Positions 6,583 through 26,258 of a stretch of 64,000 nucleotides of DNA are shown in pieces. The stretch lies in the UHGV virus genome UHGV-0038492, one strand, 5' to 3'. Numbering within the stretch: the first letter of the stretch is position 1; each line of letters begins with the position of its first letter. The notes under the pieces were generated by a model. That model made no database searches. It had not been told where the DNA came from and worked only from the letters and a program-made list of their open reading frames with translations. The position numbers and the translations under genes are program-made. This DNA comes from a virus.

Positions 6583-8421
6583 ATGGCTAAAGAGTTTAAC
6601 GATATTCCTAACAACGTAAATGCTGGCGCTGCTGGTGTAGACCCGGCTCCGTCTTTTGGTGGTGTGGGTGCTGGTGCAAGCAGCGTGGATAACACCCACG
6701 CAGCAAATGCTTTCGGTGGTATGACTAAGAATATCTCCACCTTCGATAAAGCGTTCGGCTATATGTCCTACGTTTCTGCCGCTTCACATTTCACCGCACT
6801 GATTGCGAAGATGGTTGAACGTAACCCGTACCTGAGCAAATTCCGCTGCGGTGTTATCGACGGTGTGAATCCAGAAATGGGTTCTGCGGCATACGTTGCT
6901 GCGCCAGCAGATGAAAACGGCAGCCACTGGATGTACGGTATCCTGTTCTTCGAACACGGTCAGTCTGTACGCTTCCGTGAAATCAACGGTAAAGAAACTT
7001 ATTACACCCTGGCTTCTCTGTTTGGTCAGGATGGTGTAATGGATTCTATCACCAAACAAATCTGCGAACAGCAGAACCTGCCGTCTGTGCAATTCATGGT
7101 AATGAACTGCATTCCAGACCTGGGTAAAACGCTGACTGAAGAGTGGGCTATCCAGCTGATGGGTCAGCTGACTCTGGGTATCTTTGGCCGTATTCCGGGC
7201 TACCTGGGTCAGATGAAACTGACTCGTGGCGATCGCTTCGTTGCACAGGTAACTGCGGTAGACGAAGGTTCTCTGACTGACGTTAACGGTTCTGCACAAC
7301 GTGCTGACCTGATGGTTCAAGTTGAACACACTCAGACCGGTAGCTTCGATACCAACCCGACGCTGATGTCCTCTGAACGTGTTCAGGGTTATCCGAGCGT
7401 TGCGGGTGTGGGTTACATCAACCTGCGTTACACTGGTCGTCGTGCACCTGAAAATGGCGTACAGGATTACAAACAGCTGCAAGCAGAAGTTGTTGTTTCT
7501 CTGATGGACTCTCAGTCTTCCGGGGCTATGGTACCAATCGAACGTCAGCTGATTGAACTGGCTGCCTTCGCAGAAATCGCCGCTATCGGTGGCTGGCGTG
7601 AACGCTTCATGCACTCTCTCAACAAAACCGATCGTCGTTTCTCCCGCGTTATGGAATACGTAGAGTGGGGTGACAAACGTCCTGATCTGAGCAAAATCGA
7701 TGGCAACCGCGAAGCTATCGAAGAGTGCCTGAACATGTTCGCCTACCCAGAAGCTGCGCTGGTTGTGAACCATCGTGCTGGTAACGGCATCGGTGGTCTC
7801 TCCACGATGTTCAGTGAAGTTTCCCAGGGTAACACTGGTACACTGTCTAACATCCTGACCATCCTGGACAACATGGCTCCGAAAGGTGCTACGGTGTTCA
7901 CGCAGCGTTTCGCTGAAATGCTGAAAGTTAATACCATCACCTGCAACCACGTTGTTATCGCTGGCGTGCCGACTGTTTCCGGTCAGTATTTCAGCAACAG
8001 CCAGAAACGTAGCTTCCAGGATCAGGACCTGGTGTCTGTTCTGAGCAAAGTTGGTGATAACCAACACGATGCCTACACTTACCTGTACGCGCAATCTTAC
8101 TCACACCGTCAGTTCAACGCGACTGAACAGCGTCTGTACCTGCTGAAGCTGGCCGCTTCCCTGTTCGGCAGCAAACAGCCGGTCGTAACTGGCGAGTCCA
8201 CCGATTTGGCAATCAACCCGAAATTCGCCAAAGCGCTGCTGGACTACGTGCGTGATAACTGCATCTTCCAAGTGAATGGTGTTACCGCAGTCAATAGCCT
8301 GGCTAATACGTTGTTCTTCAACAACGGCGGTGAAAACTTCACTCTGTCTGGTAACGGCCCGAATTCCTTCGGCAGTGACTACAACATGTCATTCGCTTCC
8401 GGTAACTACAGCCCTATCTGA
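6583..8421 (+). CDS. abundant protein with Gly/Ala-rich N-terminal tail; candidate nuclear-shell (chimallin-like) or major virion protein
   Basis: 612 aa; strong RBS 'aaaggataaataaaATG'; strong host-like codon bias (CTG/CGT/GGT) giving a 436-aa stop-free antisense frame. Confidence 0.7.
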   Translation: MAKEFNDIPNNVNAGAAGVDPAPSFGGVGAGASSVDNTHAANAFGGMTKNISTFDKAFGYMSYVSAASHFTALIAKMVERNPYLSKFRCGVIDGVNPEMGSAAYVAAPADENGSHWMYGILFFEHGQSVRFREINGKETYYTLASLFGQDGVMDSITKQICEQQNLPSVQFMVMNCIPDLGKTLTEEWAIQLMGQLTLGIFGRIPGYLGQMKLTRGDRFVAQVTAVDEGSLTDVNGSAQRADLMVQVEHTQTGSFDTNPTLMSSERVQGYPSVAGVGYINLRYTGRRAPENGVQDYKQLQAEVVVSLMDSQSSGAMVPIERQLIELAAFAEIAAIGGWRERFMHSLNKTDRRFSRVMEYVEWGDKRPDLSKIDGNREAIEECLNMFAYPEAALVVNHRAGNGIGGLSTMFSEVSQGNTGTLSNILTILDNMAPKGATVFTQRFAEMLKVNTITCNHVVIAGVPTVSGQYFSNSQKRSFQDQDLVSVLSKVGDNQHDAYTYLYAQSYSHRQFNATEQRLYLLKLAASLFGSKQPVVTGESTDLAINPKFAKALLDYVRDNCIFQVNGVTAVNSLANTLFFNNGGENFTLSGNGPNSFGSDYNMSFASGNYSPI

Positions 8422-10473: not shown

Positions 10474-11061
10474 ATGGGCATGTGGAATCTAGGCGGGTCT
10501 ATTTGGCAGCGTCAAGACGAAAATAGCGGTATGTATCGTTATTTCAAAGAGAACTTTAACCTGTCTAGTTTCGCACCGGATATGGTTGAACGCGTGAAGC
10601 AGAAGTGTAATGAACTGATCTCATTGCAACGTTTCCGCGAAATGTACGCAGCTGCGCGTAAGGTTCAGAATAGCGATGCAACGAATGTAGTAAGACAACT
10701 TGAAACTATCGGGCAATTCCAGTTTGCGAATGAGGCGTTACAACCGTTCTTAGTTGCAATGCCGGAATACCGACAGCTTTACAACAATAACATGGCGACG
10801 GGCTTTGAGAACGGCTACTCTAAGGTAGACCGATTCCGAGGCTCGGCGTACATGCACACTGACGATAACTATCGTGAAGTTACGTCAGGTATGTCAACGG
10901 AGTACGACGAGGATCGTATCTGGAACTGGGTATCCAACGAAGATCGCTCCAATCGACTTACTCGCGTTCAGCAAGTTGACATGCAGATTAACTGGGCACG
11001 TATGCGAAGTTTTGACTGGGAAGATGAAGATCCCTGTTCAGAACTTGGTGCGTCCTGCTAA
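10474..11061 (+). CDS. hypothetical protein
   Basis: 195-aa ORF followed by terminator. Confidence 0.5.
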   Translation: MGMWNLGGSIWQRQDENSGMYRYFKENFNLSSFAPDMVERVKQKCNELISLQRFREMYAAARKVQNSDATNVVRQLETIGQFQFANEALQPFLVAMPEYRQLYNNNMATGFENGYSKVDRFRGSAYMHTDDNYREVTSGMSTEYDEDRIWNWVSNEDRSNRLTRVQQVDMQINWARMRSFDWEDEDPCSELGASC

Positions 11062-14202: not shown

Positions 14203-14844
14203 ATGGTTAACAAAAATTTCTTTAAAGAAAAATATCTTTACCCGCAAACCGAACCGGACCAGCAGGGCCGTACCCGTAAACTGGGTATTGAGCTTAACGA
14301 ATTCAACGGTGACGTTGAGCTGATGAAGTTCAGCTATTCTTTCGGTAAAGGCGAAGGTTTGTATTTTACTGCTGGCTATACCGTTTGTGTGGACATTTTC
14401 GAAACGCTCCGCACCGTGATGGTGAAACCAGAGAAAATCGTTTATAAATGGGAAGATGCTAAAGGGAAGAAATCGCCAGTTAGCCTGCACGTAGGCCGCG
14501 ATGAAAACCTGACGCCGTTCATGGCTATTAGCGGTGAGATCCCAGGGGTTGGCGCACGCCAGAAGAAATTCTACTTCACCTATCCGAAAGGTTATCGCGT
14601 ATTCCGTAATGGCCAACAGGTTTCTGATTTAGAACTGGCAGAACGTACTCTGCGTGCGTTTATTAAGAATGCTGATGTCTTCCTGGAAGATTTCCGTGAC
14701 AACTATAAACCTCGTGAGTTCAACAACACTGGTGGCGGTAGCTACGGTCGTGGTGGCTATAATAGCAACAACAACGGCGGTGGTTACAACCAGCAGGCAG
14801 CAAAAGCACCCGCACCAGACAGCAGTTTTGACGACATTATTTAA
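14203..14844 (+). CDS. hypothetical protein with Gly/Tyr/Asn-rich linker and acidic C-terminal tip; possible SSB-like protein
   Basis: strong RBS 'aggataaagtaaATG'; optimised codons; tail 'GGGSYGRGGYNSNNNGGGYNQQ...DSSFDDII' resembles SSB linker plus acidic tip. Confidence 0.55.
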   Translation: MVNKNFFKEKYLYPQTEPDQQGRTRKLGIELNEFNGDVELMKFSYSFGKGEGLYFTAGYTVCVDIFETLRTVMVKPEKIVYKWEDAKGKKSPVSLHVGRDENLTPFMAISGEIPGVGARQKKFYFTYPKGYRVFRNGQQVSDLELAERTLRAFIKNADVFLEDFRDNYKPREFNNTGGGSYGRGGYNSNNNGGGYNQQAAKAPAPDSSFDDII

Positions 14845-14921: not shown

Positions 14922-14958
14922 TTATCTTAGATAGATTTTATCTTTGTGGTCGACTATG
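14922..14958 (+). promoter_or_regulatory. phage promoter-like motif, copy 3
   Basis: 'ttatcttagatagattttatctttgtgg'. Confidence 0.4.
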
Positions 14959-14978
14959 TTATCCCTGGAGATTTTAAA

Positions 14979-16607
14979 ATGCGTATTGAGAAAAATCGCG
15001 ACCGTCTCATTATTAGTTACGGTGATAAGGAAGTAGGGTTTAACGGATTCCGTAATGGACGCAAAGATGCGAATGTGCCAGACGTACGCGATAGCTCCGG
15101 CAAAGTGGTTACCCATGACAAAATTATGTTCATGGAAATCGAACGTTATTGGTCAACGTTAACGTCGGAGGAAAAGGAAGAGTTATTCTCGGCGTACGAA
15201 GAGTTAGAAATGCTGGGTAATGAAGAACCCGAAACGATTCGTAAACATGCGCCAGAGATTGTTGCACAAATTGCCAAATTCCACCACGCGGACAGATTCC
15301 GCCAACTCTATCCACAAAGTTCCGTGTGGATTCCTCAAAACGTCCACGAAACTTACGAAGAAATGTCATCTAACTATCCGAAAGAGATGACGTATATCGT
15401 ACAAGACTACTACGAACTGGTCATACTGTCGCTGATGGTAAAACCGTTCATTCCGGTATTCTTGGTCATGGATGCTTTCCCGACAACACGCGCCGCTGTG
15501 GACTCTAAGCGGAAAAGCGTTTATAACTTAACCCATTGCATGGAATTGCTTTACGACACCGAGATAGCACAACTACCTGCAATCAGTAAATTGCGGGACT
15601 TCTTAGTGTCGGTGATTTCGAAAGTACAGGACGGTGGTAATAAAGGACCGAACAGTGCGAACTTAACGGTGCTGGCCTCTATCTGTGGTTACGGTACGGA
15701 TATGGTGGAAGAGTATATCATGGCATTCGCGGTGATTCGCTTAATCGCCATGAAACTCATCGGCGCAGAGTTACCTCCAGGCACGATGGTGGAGAACAAC
15801 ATCGTTGCGGGGATGTACTTTAATATCAAGCAGGAAATCGAAACAGGATTTGCAGGAAAGATTTCGTCACAGAACGTCATCTTAAAAGCGCATCCTGAAA
15901 AGATTATGTTTAACGGTGAGAAAGGGAAAACCTGTGCGATAGACTTGGTTCAGGCGCGTTCTAAAGCGCCAATGAAAGAGTTTGTTCGTACTCAAGAGTT
16001 TTTCAACGATTACCGTCGTGTGGTGCGTTCTTTAGGGATCGATATCGCCCCTGCGGATGCTAAGGTACTGATTGATTCTATTCACCTGAATCATCAATAT
16101 CCGTTCTACGAACTGTACGAGTGGCTGGTTGCAGCTGCACTGCATCGCTTTGCTGACCGCAGAACCTATAAGGACATTGACGCTGCTGCGTTTAAGAATG
16201 CAATGGGGATCGCACAAGCGATTTATATCTACTACGGAATGCATGAGATAGCACAGTTGCTAAGCTGTGAAATGGTCTTAGATCCCAATAACGGGGGCTA
16301 TCCAATCGAACCTATTGATAATGAGATCAAAATAAAATCGGATAGATTTTATCCTCAGGCATACCGTACCAATCGCAATATCTACGAACAGTCAACACTG
16401 AAGACGTCTTTGACGTTGTTGGTACGTGAACATATTGCACCGTTTAACTTCAATCTCAGGGCAACACCTGAAGCAGCAAGAATGCTTCGGAGTGGAGAAG
16501 TGATGTTAGGCTACACACCACACCCACGACTTCAGAACATGTTAGCAGAATTCCTGTTAATTCAGAACAGGAAGAAATGTGAAGAAGTGGCGTGGTTTAA
16601 TCAGTAA
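14979..16607 (+). CDS. hypothetical protein
   Basis: start moved to ATG (MRIEKN...) with GGAG 8 nt upstream; track start is 14946. Confidence 0.55.
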   Translation: MRIEKNRDRLIISYGDKEVGFNGFRNGRKDANVPDVRDSSGKVVTHDKIMFMEIERYWSTLTSEEKEELFSAYEELEMLGNEEPETIRKHAPEIVAQIAKFHHADRFRQLYPQSSVWIPQNVHETYEEMSSNYPKEMTYIVQDYYELVILSLMVKPFIPVFLVMDAFPTTRAAVDSKRKSVYNLTHCMELLYDTEIAQLPAISKLRDFLVSVISKVQDGGNKGPNSANLTVLASICGYGTDMVEEYIMAFAVIRLIAMKLIGAELPPGTMVENNIVAGMYFNIKQEIETGFAGKISSQNVILKAHPEKIMFNGEKGKTCAIDLVQARSKAPMKEFVRTQEFFNDYRRVVRSLGIDIAPADAKVLIDSIHLNHQYPFYELYEWLVAAALHRFADRRTYKDIDAAAFKNAMGIAQAIYIYYGMHEIAQLLSCEMVLDPNNGGYPIEPIDNEIKIKSDRFYPQAYRTNRNIYEQSTLKTSLTLLVREHIAPFNFNLRATPEAARMLRSGEVMLGYTPHPRLQNMLAEFLLIQNRKKCEEVAWFNQ

Positions 16608-16640: not shown

Positions 16641-18344
16641 ATGGCAATGAAACTTCTAAAGCTTCAAATCAACCCAGTGTACGAAATCCCTAAACAGATT
16701 CGTCGTCGTATTGGGTTCTTTGAATCTAAGTACGCTTTAGATGAACTCGTAAACGTTGTGGCGCAACATGGCGAGAATGCGACCAAGACTCGAGATTATC
16801 AAGAAGCGTTAGGGCAGATTGTAGGGTTTGATAATACTCCGACCGGTGTTGAATCTCCGCTGATTAACGTAAGCGATGATGAATCCCGTCCGGTACAATT
16901 CCAGTATAATTCCCGTGACACTGGCGTGTATAACTTCGTTGCGATTATCGTAGGTAACGTGATTAACGAATGTCGTACGCAAGAAACCCGTTATGTTGTC
17001 TCGGGTTATACCTCCCAGGCAGAGCGCTCCGTATTTAACCACCTGCCAGATGACATGGTGTTATACATCAATGAAATCTACGGCTTGCAGTGTACGTACA
17101 TTACCGATGCGTTCGGGGGACGTCGTATCAACCCAGATTCATTCCGTCTGGTTGATAACTACGTGCTGTCTAAAACATTGACAGCGGATAGCTACAGTGA
17201 GCACACTATCGATGCGATCTCTACTGCAAAAGCAGCATCCACGATTCGTAATCTGATTAACGCAGGTGAGAAGTTCACTTACGATGACCAAACGGTTATC
17301 TCTGCGAACTGTCAATCCGCACCGCAGCTGATGTCTGGTCAACTGACTCGTCCTGAGTCTTTCGTCACAGCGATTGCTAACTCTTTCATCAACACGATGG
17401 GGATTGAAACAGAACTGAGCACGGTAGACAGCTTCTTTGCAGGTGACCATTCTCTCGGTGTAGAATCCGAGCTGAACCAAATCGGGGTAATGCGCAATTT
17501 CAATAACTACGAACTGATCCGTGCTTTCCGTGCCGCGTTAACGAACGCGACGTCGGATGTGACTGGTGGTTGGAACGCAGTCAACCGCGCAGCGTTTAAG
17601 TTAGCTGATTTGCGTAACGCAATCATGAACCCGCAAGATTTGGATATTGCGATTTCGCAATCTCTAGCGGTAGCTGACCGCCGTGGTTTCGGTGAGATTG
17701 AACGTACCGATGATTGGGTAGGACGTAATAACTATTCTACCCAAGGTTCTCTGGTTGCGTTTGATTTGGCGATGGTACTCGGTCCAATCGTGTCCCGTAA
17801 CTTGATTGGTGAGATTACTTTCTTCTACGATAACCGCATGGCGGATATTTCCACGCAACCGATGCTGCAAGTTGCTCACCACACAGTCGGCGCGTTAACT
17901 GATGAAGGTTTGCCAGATGTATTAGCACGTCGTTTCATGAGCGATCTCCAGGGTTTGATGCTACAAGTGACCAAACACAACCGTATTCGTTGCTGCATGA
18001 CAGTAACTTGTATCGTTGGTGTGGTAACGCGCATTGAGATTGAACTCGATGGTGAGATGCCTGAGTATTACACCTTTGCATCGTTCATGAAAGCGCGTAT
18101 CCATAGTGGGGTGACAACTGATCTTAACTACACCAATCAGTTGGCTGTCGAAACGGCACAGCTGATGAATAAAGTAGAAGAAGGTTATCAGGAATTCAAC
18201 CGTGGACAAAACCGGACTAATATCCTGTCCAACATTCCTACGGCAGCGGCTGCGCCTACCAATAGCTTCGGTTCTTTCGGTAGCTTTGGTGCTCCTGACA
18301 ATACTTCCACCACAGGCGGTCTATTCGGCGCTTTCGGCGAGTAA
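16641..18344 (+). CDS. hypothetical protein with FG-rich C-terminal tail
   Basis: 567 aa; RBS 'aaaggag'; tail '...APTNSFGSFGSFGAPDNTSTTGGLFGAFGE'. Confidence 0.6.
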   Translation: MAMKLLKLQINPVYEIPKQIRRRIGFFESKYALDELVNVVAQHGENATKTRDYQEALGQIVGFDNTPTGVESPLINVSDDESRPVQFQYNSRDTGVYNFVAIIVGNVINECRTQETRYVVSGYTSQAERSVFNHLPDDMVLYINEIYGLQCTYITDAFGGRRINPDSFRLVDNYVLSKTLTADSYSEHTIDAISTAKAASTIRNLINAGEKFTYDDQTVISANCQSAPQLMSGQLTRPESFVTAIANSFINTMGIETELSTVDSFFAGDHSLGVESELNQIGVMRNFNNYELIRAFRAALTNATSDVTGGWNAVNRAAFKLADLRNAIMNPQDLDIAISQSLAVADRRGFGEIERTDDWVGRNNYSTQGSLVAFDLAMVLGPIVSRNLIGEITFFYDNRMADISTQPMLQVAHHTVGALTDEGLPDVLARRFMSDLQGLMLQVTKHNRIRCCMTVTCIVGVVTRIEIELDGEMPEYYTFASFMKARIHSGVTTDLNYTNQLAVETAQLMNKVEEGYQEFNRGQNRTNILSNIPTAAAAPTNSFGSFGSFGAPDNTSTTGGLFGAFGE

Positions 18345-18364
18345 AAAATATCAAGGATTAATAA

Positions 18365-19744
18365 ATGAAAATTATTGAATTCTATAAATCGTTTCTTAAA
18401 TCACAAGGATTCGATTTCGAGAACGATTTGCTTACCCGTGATGACGGTGAGCCAGCAGAATTTACCTACAACAAAGTGAAGCGCCGCCTGGCGCTTCCAA
18501 CGTCAGCAATGATTAAGAAAGGAATGGAAGATGACGACGGACGTGAATGTCAGGCATTCCATCCTCTCTGTGAATCTGTGCTGGCCGGTGAATCGGGCAC
18601 TATCCGTTTCTTGAAGAAATCCATCAATGCGAATTTGTTCATTCGTTCCTTTGCGTTGATTGACGCTATTCTGGAAACGGCTGCCAGTGGTAAAGCAATT
18701 CGTTCTGCGGCGTACAAGAAGTTCTTAACGGAACAGATTTGTGAAGGGATGAAAGATCCGACGTTTGACGATCGTTTGGTGAAATCCTGGGAAGCAGTTA
18801 AACAATACGTTTATGGCTTATTGGAGCGCGATAAAAAGCACAAAGTTACCCAGCTCTTTATTGCATCTGATTTAGTTATCGACGGTGTGAAGTTTAACCG
18901 TGTGGCTAATTATCGCCATATGTTCGAAGAAGAATCCTTAGATGGTACTGCAATGTACTTCTCGGTGAAGCTTCAACGTAAACAGGATAAGGTGATTATT
19001 CATCGTCTGCTGACCACTGTGTTCGGTTGGTATCCAAGTGTCACCGGTTCTAACGATTCCCGTCCGTACTTCGGGTCGTTAGCACGCGGTTGGGCACAGT
19101 ACGTGGTAAACTACAATAACGTAGTGAAAGGGTTACGTGACCACACACCACTGCGTCCGTTGGACGATGAATGGATTTCACAGCTGGACAACATGGAGAT
19201 TTACGATAATGTCATTCAGACCTTGCCGTATAACACCGGTCCACGTTCAGACAATCCTGAGCGTGATACCAGTGCCCGCGAGTTCAGAATTGACAGATCG
19301 TCGGCAACGGAACAGATCCCGACGAAGAAGGCGTCTGATGCGGATAAACCGAACCTGGACGATCCGGTAGAGTTCTTCCGTGCGCGTAAGCAACGGATGA
19401 CGCCGACAAACAGCTTCGGTAATCTTTCTCCAGCAATGCAGCGTTTTGTGGAAGAGCACAACACAACTAACCTGGCTGGTACAGGAATGGTAGGACGGAT
19501 TTCTGTAGTAGATGCTTTCGGTGGCGAGCGTAAGAGTAGTGGTTTTGGTGACGTAGGTGGATTCGGTCAACCGAACTCGTTGTCGAATACGTTTGGTGGT
19601 GGGCACTCTTTTGGCGGGGGTTCATCATTCGGAGGCAGCTCTTTCGGCAGCCAGCCTCAGTTTGGTTCGTCTAGCGGATTTGGTAGTAGTACAGGCAACC
19701 CATTTACCAGTGCTTCTACGAGTCCGTTTAAGAGCTCGTACTAA
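18365..19744 (+). CDS. hypothetical protein with long FG/GF/Ser-rich low-complexity tail
   Basis: 459 aa; tail 'SGFGDVGGFGQPNSLSNTFGGGHSFGGGSSFGGSSFGSQPQFGSSSGFGSS'; shares 'PTNSFG' with the upstream protein. Confidence 0.6.
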   Translation: MKIIEFYKSFLKSQGFDFENDLLTRDDGEPAEFTYNKVKRRLALPTSAMIKKGMEDDDGRECQAFHPLCESVLAGESGTIRFLKKSINANLFIRSFALIDAILETAASGKAIRSAAYKKFLTEQICEGMKDPTFDDRLVKSWEAVKQYVYGLLERDKKHKVTQLFIASDLVIDGVKFNRVANYRHMFEEESLDGTAMYFSVKLQRKQDKVIIHRLLTTVFGWYPSVTGSNDSRPYFGSLARGWAQYVVNYNNVVKGLRDHTPLRPLDDEWISQLDNMEIYDNVIQTLPYNTGPRSDNPERDTSAREFRIDRSSATEQIPTKKASDADKPNLDDPVEFFRARKQRMTPTNSFGNLSPAMQRFVEEHNTTNLAGTGMVGRISVVDAFGGERKSSGFGDVGGFGQPNSLSNTFGGGHSFGGGSSFGGSSFGSQPQFGSSSGFGSSTGNPFTSASTSPFKSSY

Positions 19745-19751
19745 GGTAGTA

Positions 19752-19783
19752 AAAAGAAGGGACAGTGTCCCTTCTTTTTTTAA
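19752..19783. terminator. bidirectional terminator between convergent genes
   Basis: 'agaagggacagtgtcccttct' followed by T-run. Confidence 0.65.
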
Positions 19784-20103
19784 TCGTCTACGATGGTGCT
19801 AAGAATACTGGCGACGACCCCGGCATCTGGAACTATCAGCTCTGTAATCTCAGGGGTGAAGTTCATAGGGTCTTCCAAGTTATTGAGCAGCATCATTGGG
19901 TAGATGATGTTTTCGGCATAACCTTTCAGTTTGCAGTAAGCGTAGAAATTGTGAATCTCAGGATAACTGAATCGTGGGTCTACAGTTTCTACTTTAGTTT
20001 GTGGGTGTTTACGCAGAAAATCTGTGTAATCGTGCAGCACTTTCCAGGTGCTGGTATAGGGCGCAGGTATGATTTCTTTTAGGGTAATAAAATCTTCAAG
20101 CAT
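19780..20103 (-). CDS. hypothetical protein
   Basis: 107-aa minus-strand ORF with AGGAA upstream of ATG. Confidence 0.5.
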   Translation of the reverse strand: MLEDFITLKEIIPAPYTSTWKVLHDYTDFLRKHPQTKVETVDPRFSYPEIHNFYAYCKLKGYAENIIYPMMLLNNLEDPMNFTPEITELIVPDAGVVASILSTIVDD

Positions 20104-20166: not shown

Positions 20167-22407
20167 ATGAAAACGCCGGTTGAGCTATTGAGCAGCGTCG
20201 CTGACCGTGAAGTTAATATCGCACAGGTATCAGGTGCAAGGGCATCGATGGTAGGTAACCATATGAAATCCTCGGTGCCGATTGACCATCCTGAGCCGTC
20301 GCCTCACTTTACGGGCGCAGATACCAATTACCACGATTTTCTGTTTAACGATATTGTGGAAGACAGTGGGAGCATCTGTCATTACACAACTAAGGAAGGT
20401 AGACAACGTCGCGCAACGTTTACCCGTTATGGTCGTCGTGGGGATTCCCGTGCGCTGGAACACGCGATATTCTTCCGCCGTGCAGAATGCCGTATTCCGG
20501 GCAAAACAATGATAGACGTTATCGAGATTAACTTTTATACTAATCACGATAACGTGTTCTCTTCCGAGAAATGGGAATCACCAAAGCTGCGTAGTTTGTT
20601 ACGCGGTGAAACCGACCAGTTAGAAAAGGATGAAATCCTGACGACGATGCCGTGTATGGTGGATGGTGAATTCGCAGACAGTGTGGTGCTGCCAACGGTT
20701 ACCATTTCACACCCAGACATTATCGAGGATTCCTACACGATTTCCGAAGAAGCGGCACAGAAGCTTCACGGATACGGGTTGAAGGTTATCGAGAAAACCT
20801 TACGTGAAGATGAATTCTTGCTGGATACCTACGGCTATAACGATCCCGAGGGAAATCGTGTACCGCGCTATTTTCCAGACGTGGGTGAAGCGATTCGTGA
20901 TGACGGATTAGTTATCGCTTCTCGTCGTTTCGATGACCTGTACGCAGCGATTGATGCAACCTTAGGGGAAACTCAACACGTTTCTCCGTTCTTCGATAAC
21001 TGTGATTACGTGGATGCCGATCCGATACACTATAAAGCGCGTTTGGAAAACAATCACGAACTGATGGAACGTAGCGGAACTCGCATTGTTGATATTCAGG
21101 TTTGGCGTGATGAAACGTCATGCGGTAATGGAACGAATAACATTAACTGTACTGAAGAGAACAAACGTGAGCTTGACAAATACGCATTGGCGTTAAAGGA
21201 CTACTACAATGCGATTGTTCGCTTCTATTTCTCCGTGTCGAGAGATAAAAACATTATCTGGTCTCCCAAAGCGTGTGTGTTGCTGGAGAAAGCTTTTGCA
21301 TCCGAAACGTACGAAGTCTACGCAGAGTTTCGTGAAGAAATTCGCGGAGTGATTGAAGACGCAATTCGTCGCGGCGAATACGGTAAAGAGAACGTAAGTC
21401 AACAGATTATCTCCAAATTGACTTCACCTGTTCAGCGCGGATTAAGCGATCCCATCAATACGTGCACAATTCGTATCGCGGTACGTTATCCGATCCCGGT
21501 GACGGTGTCTTCTAAGATTACCGACCGCTCGGGTACGAAAGGGATTGTGGGTCGTGTACTGCCAGTTGAACAGATGCCAATTAACGAGTTCGGCGAACGT
21601 GTCCACGTACTACGTTCAATGAACGCCGTGATTCGTCGTTCTACCTACGCCGCGCTGTTCCACATGTATTGGTCAGCAGCATCTGAACAGCTGAAGATGC
21701 GTCTTAAACCGATGCTGGATGAAGGACGTATTGGTGAGTGTTGGGAAATCCTGATGGACTACCTTTCACGCTATAATCCAGAATGGGCGAACACGTTACA
21801 GGCTACGCATCCTACGGAGGATTTGCAGCGAGAACTCTTTAAAGAGATTTACGATTTCACCATCCGCATTTACTTACCTCACGAACTTGATGACACTCCG
21901 GTGGAAATCAGTGAACGTTTAGGTGAGTTTAAACCTCGTAAGTCGAAACTGCTTATTACCAATTACGATGGTAAACAGGAATGGACAAAAGACGAGTTTT
22001 ACGTGGGTGGTGTAGAAACATTACGGCTTGATAAGACGGGACGTGAATTCTCAAGTATTTCGTCGATGTACCTGAACTACCTGGGCACGATTGATGCGTC
22101 TAACCAAGGACGTGGTTCGTATCCGGTAAACTATAAAACGTTAAAATGGGCTGGTCCTTCGGAAGAACGACTATTAGCGGGTTATGGTCCAGGTAACTAC
22201 GAAGAGGTTCACGATAGGGCAAATAACCCTGCTGTACATCGAGAGATTTTAGTAGGGCTGTACCGATCTCAAACCCCTTCCAATCCGGGCGTACTGGTAG
22301 ACCGGAATAAACTCCCATTAGGAGATTCGCAGATTGACAGAATGATGAAAAACATTCATAGCTGCGAAGGGTTTGAATTGGTGAAAATGAAAAGGGGCGA
22401 AGAATAA
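20167..22407 (+). CDS. RNA polymerase beta subunit, C-terminal fragment
   Basis: 'DRSGTKGIVGRVLPVEQMPINEFGERVHVL' aligns to beta '[31 protein letters not shown]'; 'EERLLAGYG' aligns to 'GEMEVWALEAYG'. Confidence 0.7.
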   Translation: MKTPVELLSSVADREVNIAQVSGARASMVGNHMKSSVPIDHPEPSPHFTGADTNYHDFLFNDIVEDSGSICHYTTKEGRQRRATFTRYGRRGDSRALEHAIFFRRAECRIPGKTMIDVIEINFYTNHDNVFSSEKWESPKLRSLLRGETDQLEKDEILTTMPCMVDGEFADSVVLPTVTISHPDIIEDSYTISEEAAQKLHGYGLKVIEKTLREDEFLLDTYGYNDPEGNRVPRYFPDVGEAIRDDGLVIASRRFDDLYAAIDATLGETQHVSPFFDNCDYVDADPIHYKARLENNHELMERSGTRIVDIQVWRDETSCGNGTNNINCTEENKRELDKYALALKDYYNAIVRFYFSVSRDKNIIWSPKACVLLEKAFASETYEVYAEFREEIRGVIEDAIRRGEYGKENVSQQIISKLTSPVQRGLSDPINTCTIRIAVRYPIPVTVSSKITDRSGTKGIVGRVLPVEQMPINEFGERVHVLRSMNAVIRRSTYAALFHMYWSAASEQLKMRLKPMLDEGRIGECWEILMDYLSRYNPEWANTLQATHPTEDLQRELFKEIYDFTIRIYLPHELDDTPVEISERLGEFKPRKSKLLITNYDGKQEWTKDEFYVGGVETLRLDKTGREFSSISSMYLNYLGTIDASNQGRGSYPVNYKTLKWAGPSEERLLAGYGPGNYEEVHDRANNPAVHREILVGLYRSQTPSNPGVLVDRNKLPLGDSQIDRMMKNIHSCEGFELVKMKRGEE

Positions 22408-24506
22408 TGAAGGCGACTCCGGTTCACGTAAGAGACTTGTGCAAGTTGAATTCGGATCAGGTGTGGCTACTTCGGGGCGTTTACGACGTGTCCTTCGACG
22501 ATGGGGTCACGTTGAGAATGTCTGGTCGACACATTAAGTTGAGCTGGCCGTATTGGGGATTAACCCAGTTTTATCCCCAGGTGCCAATCTCGTCGAACAT
22601 GGCGTATAAGCATGGCGACACGGCAACTGACGATGCGCATCTGCGCTTTATGTCGTTGGCGGCTGTAGCGGCACGTAAGGCCGGAGTGGATCTGGCCGAT
22701 ACCCGTTACCTGTTATCACAACACGTTTATGCAAACGCGTTTAACCTGACGGTGAAAAACTTGTTGTCGTATTGTGTTACCATTGACTACGATACGATGA
22801 TGGAGATTTATCAGCATGAAAACTTCAAGCTGATTATTGAGTGGTCTAAGCACTATCCGACGGGTTACGATGAAGAGGGTAACGATAAGGTAGAAGAAGC
22901 CTATCAGCTCATTGAGAAAATCTTTAAAGATCCGAGACTCTCAAACAACCCGGTCGTCATGTCTGTGTTAGACCGCACACTGAAAATGGATCAGATTCTC
23001 CAGGCTTACATTCGTGGTAAGACTTCAGAGATTGATTCCCGTGTGTATTCTAACCAGGTATGGGAAGGTTTCTTCACCGGCCTGCATTCTGTTATCAGTC
23101 GACTGAAAGAAGCAGGTGCGACATCGCGTTCACACCTGTATAACACCGACAAGATTGCAGACGCAGAGTACGCATCACGTAAGTTGCAGTTAGCGGCTAA
23201 CGTGCTGATGTTCTTCGATTACGAAGACTGTGGTACACATCACGTACACAGACACACCTTTACGAATTCGCCGTTGGAAGAAGCGAAATTCAAAGCGATG
23301 AAAGGAATGCGTTATCGCTTCGAAGGTACTGGTGGTCCGTGGTTACGATTCGAAGACGGTGAGTTTGAGAAAGTCTTGAACAAACCTATCGAGTTCCGTA
23401 CCGCGATGTGTTGTAAAGGGATGTCACGGCAGACTATCTGTGCAACGTGTATGGGTGACTTGATTTATAACCTGTCACCTGGTACATCACCGGGTCACCT
23501 TGCGTCAACCGCAATCTCGGAAAAGGGTACTCAGGGTATTCTGTCGACGAAACACCTTGACTTCCTGCGTTATCTGCTGAACTTGGTTTTGTCGCCAAGA
23601 ATGCGTGATTATCTCACGGAGTATAAACACAACTCCGTTAAAGGGATTAGTTTACTGGAGAAGCCGCAATACGGTACTTGGGATGAATACCAACTGGTAA
23701 TTTCGGATGAAGTCTATTCAGAGATTAGCCAGATTGCGTATCATGAAGACCTGGACGATATTGATGAAACGGCACTCCCGGAAATTAACGACCTTACGTT
23801 TGTTCGTTTAGATGCAGAAGGGAATATCCTGGCAGAAGATCCGATTGACGTTCGAATGGGCGTCTGCGGTAACTTCTCTAAGTCATTCCTTCGCTTCTTC
23901 TTGAAGAATCGTGATAAGCTCGTATTCCCCAGCAAGAAAACGGTGCGTGTTCCGCTAAAAGGGTGGAAACCGTCCTGGCCGATCCTAATTTATACGAATC
24001 GGTCTGAATCTATGGCGGAGTTTGTAGCAGGGTTGGAATTGATTTTACGTTCGGTAGCATCGGACAAGTCAGATAACTTCGAACAGTTCTCGGACGAGTC
24101 AATGCGTTTGAGCAAGAAGAGTGGTAAGGTTAAACCGATTACCCTCGTTCAGATGCGTGGTGCCACGGAGAAACAATGTACTCATGCGTTGTTCTACGTG
24201 TTCAAATATATCCAACGTAAACTCAAAGGGATTCCGATGACGCACATCGCGATTATGTTGGCAATCTCTCGTGTTGAGTCACCTACTAACCCATTCCCGG
24301 CAGTAGGGTTTGACAGTGAGGATGCTGATGCCGCAGAAGGAAAACGTTTCGAAGATCACAATACGCTGATTGCGATGCGTTCTGCGATTCCGATGTTGCT
24401 GTTTGAGGGACAACAGAAGAACTTGGACAACGTACGTTTCTATACGTCACGTAAACGTCCTGCTTCGTTGTACGACAATTCTGTCGCGGCAACGATTATT
24501 GAGTAA
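22407..24506 (+). CDS. RNA polymerase beta-prime subunit, C-terminal fragment
   Basis: bridge-helix-like 'GATSRSHLYNTDKIADAEYASRKLQ...EDCGTH' and trigger-loop region 'CCKGMSRQTICATCMGD...AISEKGTQGILSTKH' align to beta-prime '[24 protein letters not shown]...DDCGTH' and 'CAHCYGRDL...SIGEPGTQLTMRTFH'. Confidence 0.7.
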   Translation: MKATPVHVRDLCKLNSDQVWLLRGVYDVSFDDGVTLRMSGRHIKLSWPYWGLTQFYPQVPISSNMAYKHGDTATDDAHLRFMSLAAVAARKAGVDLADTRYLLSQHVYANAFNLTVKNLLSYCVTIDYDTMMEIYQHENFKLIIEWSKHYPTGYDEEGNDKVEEAYQLIEKIFKDPRLSNNPVVMSVLDRTLKMDQILQAYIRGKTSEIDSRVYSNQVWEGFFTGLHSVISRLKEAGATSRSHLYNTDKIADAEYASRKLQLAANVLMFFDYEDCGTHHVHRHTFTNSPLEEAKFKAMKGMRYRFEGTGGPWLRFEDGEFEKVLNKPIEFRTAMCCKGMSRQTICATCMGDLIYNLSPGTSPGHLASTAISEKGTQGILSTKHLDFLRYLLNLVLSPRMRDYLTEYKHNSVKGISLLEKPQYGTWDEYQLVISDEVYSEISQIAYHEDLDDIDETALPEINDLTFVRLDAEGNILAEDPIDVRMGVCGNFSKSFLRFFLKNRDKLVFPSKKTVRVPLKGWKPSWPILIYTNRSESMAEFVAGLELILRSVASDKSDNFEQFSDESMRLSKKSGKVKPITLVQMRGATEKQCTHALFYVFKYIQRKLKGIPMTHIAIMLAISRVESPTNPFPAVGFDSEDADAAEGKRFEDHNTLIAMRSAIPMLLFEGQQKNLDNVRFYTSRKRPASLYDNSVAATIIE

Positions 24507-24548: not shown

Positions 24549-26258
24549 ATGTACGAATTCCACATGACCTTTACCAGCATGGGGGTGAGGGTTGAAGTCC
24601 CGTGCCGACAGATAGAGTCGGCGATACTTAAGTGGGCAGAAGAACATATGCACGCTCCTAAGATGGGCAAGCAATACGGTCGTATATTCACTGAACGTGG
24701 CGATCCGTATTACGCGCATATACCTTCTCTCCGCTCGTTTATCTTCCACAGGAACTTTTCTGAGCGTTTACGCATTATTATTAATCGTACGGCAACCGAA
24801 TTTGGTATTGAGTATAAGCTCTACGAGCATTACTTAACGCAGGGAACACCTTATAGGTGTAAGTTTGAAAACTACGGCTTTAAGATGGTGGAGGACGATG
24901 AGAAATCACGTTTCTTTTACCAGAACGCTGTGGTTGAAACGGCTTGCGAACCAAATCGTTTTCAAACCATCTTTGAAATTGGTACAGGGATGGGTAAGTC
25001 GAAAACGAACATGAAAGTAATGGTACGTAAGGGTGTCAGGACGCTACTGATTCACCGTCCGACGTACATCTCAAAATGGTTGTTTGATTTAACTGAAGAC
25101 CCAACGGGCTTACGTGAGTCGAAAGACGACGTTTTGGTTATCCAAGGCGTTCAGGCTATCTACGAAGCGTTAGAAATGGGGGAATCAGGCGAATTAGACA
25201 AACGTGGGATTAAGGTTATCATTATCTCAACGGTAACGTTGCAACGATTCCTTAAAGAGTACATTAACACTGCCGCAACTAACCCAGTGAACATTGATGA
25301 TTTCTACAACACCTTAGGTGTTGGGTTTTTGTCAATGGATGAAGTGCACGAGCATTTCCATCTGGTGTACATGGCAGGGATAATGCTCAACCCGCCACCG
25401 TCTGTTGAGATGTCTGCGACGTTACAGCCGGGTGAATCAAAAGCGTTTTTAGCCGAACGGTATCGAGAGCGTTTTCCACAAGAGTCACGTATATTCATTC
25501 CGATTATTCCTGCTGTGCACGTTAAAGCGTTGTACTACAGCATTGAGAATAAACGGTTTGCGTGGTGGGCGAATAAGATGACGCCGTATAATCACAAACT
25601 ATTCGAAGGTAAGTTAATAAGTGAGAACATGCACTTATCTTACGCGGATATGGTGTGGGACGTCATCGAGCGAACGTATCTGGCGAGTTACCAGCCTGGT
25701 CAGAAAGTGTTGGCGCTGTTTGCAACCGTTGCGATGTGTGAGTTCTTTACAGAGTACGTGCGAGAGAAACTGGCACAGTCTGATAAGTTCCACGCCCTGA
25801 TGGTTGCGAAATACAACGCGGGGGATTCGTATGACGACTTTATTCAAGCGGATTTCTCGATTTCAACACCAGGGAAAGCAGGCACTGCGGTCGACAAACC
25901 GGGGTTGGTTCACATGTACATTACCACCCCTGTGGAAGACCAGCAGTTAAACCGTCAGATGGCCGGTCGTCCGCGTAAGATACTTCACAACGATTGGGGT
26001 GAACTCGATCCCGTTGTGTGGTTATTCCATTCACTCTCGATAGGGAAACACTGCAATTACTTGAACGCGCGTCAGAAGTCGCTGAGTGATTCCGTGTTGT
26101 CGTTTAAGATAGCCTCTTCACCGTATGTTGTAAGGAAAACCAATGTTACTACCGCCGCAGCCGACCGAGCCAACAGCACCGTATGCCGGGCTGAACTTAG
26201 CAAGTTTTCTCGAAAAGGTTTTAAAGGCATACCCAGACGTCGAAAACGTCGTCGATAA
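24549..26258 (+). CDS. superfamily-2 DExH-box helicase/ATPase
   Basis: motif I 'GTGMGKSKT'; motif II 'SMDEVHEH'. Confidence 0.6.
   Translation: MYEFHMTFTSMGVRVEVPCRQIESAILKWAEEHMHAPKMGKQYGRIFTERGDPYYAHIPSLRSFIFHRNFSERLRIIINRTATEFGIEYKLYEHYLTQGTPYRCKFENYGFKMVEDDEKSRFFYQNAVVETACEPNRFQTIFEIGTGMGKSKTNMKVMVRKGVRTLLIHRPTYISKWLFDLTEDPTGLRESKDDVLVIQGVQAIYEALEMGESGELDKRGIKVIIISTVTLQRFLKEYINTAATNPVNIDDFYNTLGVGFLSMDEVHEHFHLVYMAGIMLNPPPSVEMSATLQPGESKAFLAERYRERFPQESRIFIPIIPAVHVKALYYSIENKRFAWWANKMTPYNHKLFEGKLISENMHLSYADMVWDVIERTYLASYQPGQKVLALFATVAMCEFFTEYVREKLAQSDKFHALMVAKYNAGDSYDDFIQADFSISTPGKAGTAVDKPGLVHMYITTPVEDQQLNRQMAGRPRKILHNDWGELDPVVWLFHSLSIGKHCNYLNARQKSLSDSVLSFKIASSPYVVRKTNVTTAAADRANSTVCRAELSKFSRKGFKGIPRRRKRRR

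Follow-up and report, generated by a model that had tools for sequence, protein, structure and literature searches.

Matched low-complexity tails on the predicted import factor Imp1/PicA and its shell-associated neighbour gp70 in chimalliviruses

Introduction

The virus genome UHGV-0038492 is represented here by a stretch of 64,000 nucleotides (the window), in which two adjacent open reading frames (ORFs) on the + strand, ORF A (16641-18344) and ORF B (18365-19744), are separated by a spacer of 20 nt and encode proteins of 567 and 459 aa, each ending in a tail rich in Ser and in the dipeptide Phe-Gly (FG). As judged by sequence homology and gene order, ORF A encodes the orthologue of Imp1/PicA (phiKZ gp69, PhiPA3 gp63, Asesino gp48), the factor that gives nuclear protein import its specificity, and ORF B encodes the orthologue of the nuclear-shell-associated protein known as phiKZ gp70, PhiPA3 gp64, or Asesino gp49. 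The tails are conserved as low-complexity tails, not as FG repeats. Their chemistry, here called the tail dialect, varies between clades, and comparison of genomes shows that within a genome the Imp1 and gp70 tails share one dialect, as do the gp70 tail and the C-terminal docking tail of the shell protein chimallin. On balance, the tails probably co-evolve and serve to retain both proteins side by side at the chimallin lattice or within it.

The passage of proteins through the chimallin lattice is the main open question on the phage nucleus, and reviews up to mid-2026 still call the mechanism of protein translocation unknown. The two genes are an import factor and its shell-associated neighbour, and across Chimalliviridae their tails behave as a co-evolving unit, which offers a testable way into the construction of the import site. 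The tails could also show whether physics of the kind seen in FG domains operates in a bacterial virus and, if they prove to be simple tethers, would still add to the interaction map of the shell and give a first functional clue for gp70. The protein families are already known, and the matched tail dialect of each phage is apparently undescribed. In a literature search that did not cover the final Nature 2025 Imp1 paper, which may comment on the tail, neither Imp1/PicA nor gp70 nor chimallin was found to be linked with FG repeats, with nucleoporins, or with disordered tails, and no mention of PHIKZ070 was found in the literature searched.

Identification of the locus and of the two proteins

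By its gene content the window represents the core locus for the nuclear shell in a chimallivirus of the Asesino type. Erwinia phage Asesino is the closest deposited phage, and its counterparts of proteins A and B are 60% and 73% identical. Chimallin (ChmA), the nuclear shell protein, is encoded at 6583-8421 (+), between the DNA polymerase gene and the nvRNAP (non-virion RNA polymerase) genes, and is 58% identical over 573 aa to Asesino gp39. It is also 39% identical to a homologue that has a Pfam Chimallin match, while the window chimallin itself had no match in the Pfam scan or in a PDB sequence search. Nucleus formation by Asesino has been verified experimentally, without PhuZ, and a gp39-GFP fusion makes a shell ring (PMC11724907). 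The premise of the initial annotation, that the DNA belongs to a lineage that builds a phage nucleus, is borne out by this relationship.

The assignment of ORF A rests on family membership, profile-profile homology, and gene position. ORF A falls into phrog_3141 (6.9e-126), the PHROG that also receives PhiPA3 gp63 (4.2e-170), and hhalign comparison of its family with the Pseudomonas, Goslar, and RAY homologues gives a probability of 97.4% and an E of 1.6e-11 over 191 columns. The single-family hidden Markov model (HMM) alone matches the known homologues weakly or marginally (E 0.003-0.09), and identity to PhiPA3 gp63 is ~17%. Like the known Imp1/PicA proteins (phiKZ gp69, PhiPA3 gp63, Goslar gp174), the product is encoded between homologues of gp68 and gp70, is of similar size, is co-encoded with chimallin, and has a folded body with no known structural relative, as has gp70. 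It differs in its FG-repeat tail, a feature not mentioned for Imp1/PicA in the literature covered, and its role in import is predicted from sequence.

ORF B falls into phrog_3520 (9.1e-130), as does PhiPA3 gp64 (1.8e-133). It matches PhiPA3 by tblastn (E 2e-13), and its family HMM reaches PhiPA3 gp64 at 2.6e-21 and phiKZ gp70 at 5.4e-11. Gene position and a long low-complexity C-terminus with an NPF-like motif are further features in common with phiKZ gp70, PhiPA3 gp64, and 201phi2-1 gp126. The folded domain is ~25% identical to those of phiKZ gp70 and PhiPA3 gp64, and its tail is composed of FG, Ser, and Gly, whereas Met, Gln, Pro, and Gly prevail in the Pseudomonas phages. The order of the surrounding block (SbcD, gp66, gp67, gp68, gp69, gp70, a small antisense gene, nvRNAP beta/beta', helicase) is common to Asesino, PhiPA3, a phiKZ-like phage, Goslar, 201phi2-1, RAY, and the Vibrio phage pVa-21. 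These sequence comparisons show that ORF A is the orthologue of Imp1/PicA and ORF B that of phiKZ gp70/PhiPA3 gp64.

Imp1/PicA (phiKZ gp69, PhiPA3 gp63) is essential, gathers in one or two puncta at the edge of the nucleus, and chooses its cargo through several surfaces of its folded body; the punctate localisation and the need for the protein in selective import have been described for the phiKZ, PhiPA3, and Goslar homologues (bioRxiv 10.1101/2024.03.27.586873; PMC11087766). A single Imp1 punctum suggests a higher-order assembly. Imp1 with a C-terminal tag localises and does not complement, and phiKZ gp67 (ChmC/Imp6) co-purifies with Imp1 from E. coli (bioRxiv 10.1101/2024.03.27.586873). In PhiPA3, gp61 (ChmC), gp63, and gp64 are all found at the nuclear shell and were detected by ChmA-miniTurboID proximity labelling (PMC10643120). 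The initial annotation had regarded diffuse localisation as evidence against its proposal; for the homologues, the literature describes localisation to the shell.

The FG tails and the PTNSFG motif

The tail of protein A spans aa 535-567 (18243-18341, +) and reads AAAAPTNSFGSFGSFGAPDNTSTTGGLFGAFGE, with 5 FG motifs including one GLFG. Protein B consists of a folded domain (aa 1-285; 18365-19219, +) with a confident AlphaFold2 fold, a charged disordered linker (aa 286-383; 19220-19513, +) in which the predicted local distance difference test (pLDDT) score is mostly <65 and 29% of the residues are charged, and the FG tail (aa 384-459; 19514-19741, +), where 9 FG motifs are followed by NPF and SPF near the C-terminus. 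The initial annotation had described two adjacent proteins with C-terminal tails rich in FG and Ser; both ORFs and the tail strings that it quoted are present, and FG is enriched in each tail (p ~1e-4). Gly follows 5 of 5 Phe in the 33-aa tail of A, where shuffling of the tail predicts 1.06 (p ~9e-5), and 9 of 11 Phe in the 76-aa tail of B, where 2.9 are expected (p ~5e-5). The motifs are spaced 3-13 residues apart in A and 5-10 in B, charged residues make up ~6% of both tails, and G/S/T/N/Q/P/A make up ~75%. Other ORFs of the 64 kb have a maximum of 3 FG per 40 aa, the third-ranked region being the N-terminus of chimallin. As to the check by disorder prediction suggested at that stage, AlphaFold2 run on family alignments gives pLDDT <50 for A 531-567 and B 386-459, with B 288-459 mostly of low confidence. 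In each protein a folded body is followed by a disordered C-terminal tail that is nearly uncharged, rich in Gly and Ser, and set with hydrophobic residues at short intervals.

The hexamer PTNSFG was likewise correctly located in both products, at residues 539-544 of A (18255-18272, +) and residues 347-352 of B, in the linker (19403-19420, +). A hexamer common to both proteins appears in ~0.9% of shuffles. All six frames of the window contain NSFG only 3 times, in chimallin (GPNSFGSD), Imp1 (PTNSFGSF), and gp70 (PTNSFGNL), each time in a disordered part of a shell protein; the chimallin PNSFG (8359-8373) lies in the C-terminal docking tail. The proposed check for conservation of PTNSFG in homologues turned out negative, and the hexamer was rejected as a conserved motif: in a metagenomic relative 81% identical to the window it is already replaced by APTSLG in A and THSPYG in B, and NSFG is not conserved beyond the window clade.

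Tails of this kind might have no specific function, being fast-evolving low-complexity spacers that resemble each other through mutational or slippage processes common to adjacent genes. Tandem repeats are, however, absent from the DNA, and the SFG units are written with different codons, which argues that the repeats are kept at the protein level. The only DNA likeness between the disordered parts of the two genes is a 17/20 match at PTNSFG, and gene conversion or slippage was rejected as the source of the tail likeness because tandem repeats and inter-tail DNA repeats beyond this match are lacking. The excess of Gly after Phe over the composition-based expectation also speaks against spacers free of constraint. 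The reading frames and stops of A and B are retained in metagenomic relatives 99% and 81% identical.

Pfam scans gave no match for the whole A and B proteins (E<=0.01) or for the tails alone (E<=10), although low-complexity filters may mask weak matches. A PDB sequence search for relatives of the gp70 tail returned PsaK as its sole match (E 1.2), which was set aside as chance.

Conservation of the tails and clade dialects

Whereas the FG pattern is local, the presence of a tail is general. Every gp70 homologue examined (>70 proteins, from close to very distant phages) has a low-complexity C-terminal region, and a tail is carried by Imp1 homologues of ~550-580 aa and by most of the Imp1 homologues examined. 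The initial annotation had named absence or lack of conservation of the tails as what would speak against it. This is not the case, as the tails recur as low-complexity tails in all gp70 and most Imp1 homologues. The idea of FG as a conserved feature did not survive, since Leu takes the place of Phe in the nearest clades and other dialects appear beyond them. The tails are also short, and no Pfam FG family is matched.

FG is the dialect of the window clade (the window and the relatives L003-L006), GLG/LG that of Asesino, phiEaH2, and SPN3US, NSLLD that of ChrisDB, Caitlin, Huxley, and L013, and LG/SLLGG that of Wellington. GF/NPF is found in Derbicus, CR5, and Phobos, SLFG/GLFG in L027, and NPF(G) in L030, where the final 110 residues of gp70 contain 11 NPF and Imp1 has two NPFG. 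Farther away, the tails are rich in Met/Gln/Pro/Gly in PhiPA3 and phiKZ, in Gln/Pro/Asn/Tyr in 201phi2-1, and in Arg/Asp in both proteins of Vibrio phage pVa-21. In a neighbour-joining tree of the folded parts, the FG clade lies within Leu-type clades as sister to phiEaH2, which indicates that FG is derived here, and the Phe-type Derbicus/Phobos clade forms a separate deep branch. Taken together, these positions imply at least two concordant switches between Phe and Leu, besides other dialect changes. The SFG of the window aligns with SLG of the 81% relative, and the window NTFGGG and HSFGG align with SALGGG and GLGG of phiEaH2, alignments of low-complexity sequence being uncertain. On these comparisons, a change from Leu to Phe is shown to have occurred in several shell proteins together in the window clade.

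For the reading of the tails as spacers without function, it is relevant that they evolve much faster than the bodies (56% and 41% identity between the window and the 81% relative, compared with 83% and 93%) and that some Imp1 proteins have none. The FG pattern is nonetheless retained between these two phages, and every gp70 homologue keeps its tail across very distant phages.

A motif of the form [ND]P[FY] near the C-terminus of gp70 is also kept across very distant chimalliviruses (window 19700-19741; L001, L022, L023, L030), with GNPFTSA in the window, ANPFAAA in PhiPA3, ANPFMAA in 201phi2-1, and QNPYLQVF in the RAY type. In the Salmonella phage SPFM records (P0028-P0031, P0074-P0078), the annotations of ORF A and B homologues are broken or chimeric, with query coverage of 4-13% and identity of 34-100%, which suggests sequencing frameshifts.

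Matching of dialects within genomes

The composition of the Imp1 tail follows that of the gp70 tail from phage to phage, as measured by Spearman correlations across 18 genomes (Phe 0.62, Leu 0.75, Gly 0.76, Gln 0.75). In a permutation test with one representative per clade (15), in which the pairing of gp70 and Imp1 tails was shuffled and likeness was computed from centred composition, 2-mers, and 3-mers, matched tails were more alike than unmatched ones (p<1e-5 for 1-, 2-, and 3-mers); the same holds among 9 close clades (p<=1e-3). The commonest 3-mers of gp70 tails occur 33 times in the Imp1 tails of their own genomes, compared with 7 expected from other genomes. Two entries were left out of the pairing, P0113, which has a distant Imp1 of the FG type and whose gp70 is not on record, and L028, whose contig stops before the gp70 tail.

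The matching is specific to these tails. In all phages Phe makes up ~3-6% of the folded bodies and Leu mostly 5-11% (up to 13%), and a folded 100-aa segment compared with the partner tail gives a matched similarity of 0.13-0.17, as opposed to 0.51 when the two tails are compared. In composition tests, the dialect is not tracked by ChmC tails or by chimallin N-tails (p 0.09-0.65). It is the final 25 residues of chimallin whose composition tracks that of the gp70 tail (0.41 vs -0.04, p=4e-5). The sequence data therefore show that, within a genome, the gp70 tail matches both the Imp1 tail and the chimallin C-terminal docking tail in dialect.

In favour of tails without specific function, a weak background similarity is seen even in the folded controls (0.13-0.17). 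Against it, the Phe and Leu content of the folded regions is unshifted, and the other disordered regions of the same genomes (ChmC tail, chimallin N-tail) ignore the dialect. Neutral drift fits poorly with the varied codons, with DNA that lacks repeats, with the order statistics, with matching that is specific to these tails, and with a gp70 tail that is always retained, and we regard it as distinctly unlikely.

In the chimallin N-tail (6583-6750, +), PSFGG and NAFGG have counterparts in phiEaH2 and SPN3US that read APLGG, SSLGN, and APLGGLGN, and the Derbicus/Phobos N-tail has SGFSVG, comparable to GGFSFG in their Imp1. The N-tail was considered as a further follower of the dialect on account of such motifs, but whole-tail composition tests were not significant and the resemblance is treated as anecdotal. 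Many Imp1 C-termini take the form aromatic-x-hydrophobic-COOH (GFKL, NFKL, GFTL, KYKF, GLKF, KLF; Imp1 and ChmA C-termini in L008, L014, L016, L018, L027, and P0113-P0115), and chimallin C-termini in the same supergroup are similar (NFKL, DYNL, SFTL, HFTF). The three shell proteins of L018 all terminate in F-[TS]-F, and in PhiPA3 and 201phi2-1 both Imp1 and gp70 end in LGLL/GLI. The GAFGE end of Imp1 in the window clade is an exception to the aromatic-x-hydrophobic pattern.

A proposed role in assembly at the shell

The tails of Imp1 and gp70 are probably co-evolving multivalent "sticker and spacer" modules. They would tie the two proteins to each other on or within the chimallin lattice, where model phages show a single import punctum, through weak like-with-like contacts between tails, through the pockets that receive chimallin's own tails, or through both. 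Cargo choice would remain on the folded surface of Imp1, as published. The FG repeats of the window would then serve in assembly or tethering and resemble cohesive FG domains in their physical chemistry, without forming a conserved barrier of the nucleoporin kind. Cohesion from tail to tail is favoured by the Arg/Asp- and Gln-rich dialects, while the discrete motifs NSLLD, NPF, and NSFG and the likeness to the chimallin C-tail favour docking in pockets.

Several observations weigh against this assembly role. When co-expressed in E. coli, Imp1 does not pull down phiKZ gp70 (bioRxiv 10.1101/2024.03.27.586873), and PicA-sfGFP, in which the C-terminus is blocked, still gives puncta (PMC11087766), so the free end of the tail is dispensable for localisation in phiKZ, PhiPA3, and Goslar. 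The shorter distant forms of Imp1, including those of Goslar and RAY, have no low-complexity tail, and the Imp1 tail is therefore not universal. Low-complexity sequence can be aligned only with uncertainty. Exact motifs are common to both proteins in only 5-6 of 17 clade representatives (window, phiEaH2, SPN3US, L030, L018, Huxley), the others agreeing in composition only, and the permutation tests ignore shared ancestry, the number of independent concordant changes being estimated at 5-7, not 15. Finally, the chimallin C-tail is not significantly related to the Imp1 tail (p=0.16), nor is the chimallin N-tail to the tail of Imp1 or gp70 (p 0.18-0.65).

Docking might also account for the tails by itself, with the motif arrays imitating the C-terminal segments of chimallin, plugging its pockets, and stitching Imp1 and gp70 into the lattice without any cohesion between tails. 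In the chimallin lattice, flexible segments at the N- and C-termini do dock onto neighbouring protomers and keep the lattice together (PMC9365700), and the composition of the gp70 tail tracks the last residues of chimallin as described above. The repeated NSLLD, NPF, and NSFG look like recognition motifs, NSFG being confined in the window to chimallin, Imp1, and gp70. Several Imp1 and gp70 C-termini resemble those of chimallin (FTF/FSF/FTF in L018; NFKL), and the homologues of both proteins are labelled by ChmA-miniTurboID in PhiPA3 (PMC10643120). The window chimallin C-tail moreover combines NSFG with an aromatic-rich dialect like that of the A and B tails. Chimallin segments, however, are single docking peptides seen by cryo-electron microscopy, whereas the A and B tails are repeat arrays with a proposed docking role. 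The lack of a significant relation between the chimallin C-tail and the Imp1 tail also speaks against docking, and in PhiPA3 and 201phi2-1 the tips of Imp1 and gp70 (LGLL) match each other and not chimallin (GFY, SFY). Arg/Asp-rich and Gln/Met-rich tails are improbable ligands for pockets, and C-terminal GFP fusions still localise (PMC11087766). Docking as the sole function is an unlikely explanation, and we prefer the one in which co-evolving tails hold Imp1 and gp70 together, with docking as one of their possible means.

Comparison with the FG domains of nucleoporins

The FG domains of nucleoporins are hundreds of residues long, carry many tens of motifs per pore component, are anchored to the pore scaffold, and are bound by transport receptors. 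The tails of the window come closest to the cohesive domains of the GLFG type (Nup98/Nup100/Nup116), with clustered FG (SFG, GFG, one GLFG) in disordered, charge-poor sequence rich in Gly, Ser, Asn, and Thr, in proteins that sit at the boundary of a DNA compartment, and with motifs that are kept while spacers drift. They differ in that homology or a Pfam match is lacking, in that the tails comprise tens and not hundreds of residues, in that Phe is exchanged in relatives, and in that the phage side has no known transport receptors or pore scaffold, its selectivity residing elsewhere. What the tails have in common with nucleoporins is no more than their physicochemical character, and this in a single young clade.

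It is nevertheless conceivable that the phage nucleus has convergently evolved a miniature nuclear-pore barrier, in which a cohesive, disordered meshwork (here FG/GLFG) at the single import site would be made up of the matched tails of Imp1/PicA, gp70, and chimallin and would be crossed by proteins. In the version considered here, the FG tails of clustered Imp1 and gp70 would build a cohesive selective phase that fills an opening in the lattice and into which cargo bound to Imp1 partitions. If so, the dialect would co-evolve as a unit and contribute to the known phage-specificity of import. The composition is of the right type (FG, SFG, GFG, one GLFG; ~6% charged; Gly/Ser/Asn/Thr spacers; an FG every 3-13 residues), and in gp70 the uncharged FG block comes after a charged linker. 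The single Imp1 punctum suggests higher-order assembly and the literature leaves the translocation mechanism unexplained, the neighbouring ChmC makes condensates by means of its own disordered tail, and the matching of chemically distinct dialects (Arg/Asp, Gln-rich) fits like-with-like cohesion. Yet the window offers just 5 FG motifs in the 33 residues of the Imp1 tail and 9 in the 76 of the gp70 tail, far fewer residues than a nucleoporin domain, and Leu stands in place of Phe in the nearest clades, with quite other chemistry elsewhere; on these grounds a nucleoporin-like barrier is possible but unlikely. In addition, neither the whole proteins nor the tails matched a Pfam nucleoporin FG family, no transport-receptor-like protein is known in chimalliviruses, and import selectivity maps to folded surfaces of Imp1 and of cargo. 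Goslar PicA is without such a tail and is nonetheless essential and forms puncta. We consider a true barrier distinctly unlikely.

The initial annotation had raised a role in selective transport or in condensate formation. The connection with transport holds to the extent that ORF A is an orthologue of Imp1/PicA and ORF B of a shell protein; a nucleoporin-style barrier or a condensate is conceivable and not a supported conclusion.

ChmC/Imp6 and the neighbouring genes

The gene for the RNA-binding Whirly protein ChmC/Imp6 (phiKZ gp67 homologue; 14203-14844, +) belongs to phrog_3284 (1.1e-50), the family of PhiPA3 gp61, and lies in the same block as ORFs A and B, two genes upstream of ORF A. 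The C-terminal disordered tail of ChmC is required for condensates with RNA in vitro. This tail is Asn/Gly-rich, and phiKZ ChmC binds Imp1 directly. The tail differs from those of Imp1 and gp70 in being composed of Gly, Asn, Tyr, and Gln with an acidic tip and few hydrophobic residues, and in showing no co-variation with the Imp1/gp70 dialect. In the window, the C-terminus of ChmC consists of a Gly/Asn/Tyr-rich linker and an acidic-hydrophobic tip (...APAPDSSFDDII). The tip is kept in all relatives (YDDFV, FDEFL, FDEMF; GFDDEIPNF in PhiPA3, AFDEDMPSF in phiKZ, DFADDLPF in RAY). The C-terminal protein-interaction tip of E. coli SSB is DFDDDIPF, and given this resemblance the Whirly-fold nucleic-acid binder has an SSB-like layout of linker plus tip.

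An Imp3 homologue (phiKZ gp59) is encoded at 10474-11061 (+) and belongs to phrog_3254 (6.3e-69), which also holds PhiPA3 gp55. As the window contains Imp1, Imp3, Imp6/ChmC, and chimallin, the whole proposed core import set is present. The nvRNAP subunit homologous to phiKZ gp68 (14946-16607, +; phrog_3209, the family of PhiPA3 gp62) precedes ORF A, and the nvRNAP beta and beta' genes (20167-22407 and 22407-24506, +; phrog_3295 and phrog_3015; Pfam RNA_pol_Rpb2_6) form the downstream limit of the conserved block.

The interval between gp70 and nvRNAP beta contains a small conserved antisense gene of 107 aa (19780-20103, -; phrog_3455, with fnug_86 of a phiKZ-like phage in the same family). It was present in every chimallivirus locus examined, including those of Asesino (gp50), the phiKZ-like phage, Goslar, 201phi2-1, RAY, and pVa-21. 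Downstream of nvRNAP, the helicase gene of the window (24549-26258) encodes 569 aa, and its counterpart in the related metagenomic phage L027 (17932-20664) encodes 910 aa with a weak LAGLIDADG match, the extra length probably being an intein or a mobile endonuclease insertion.

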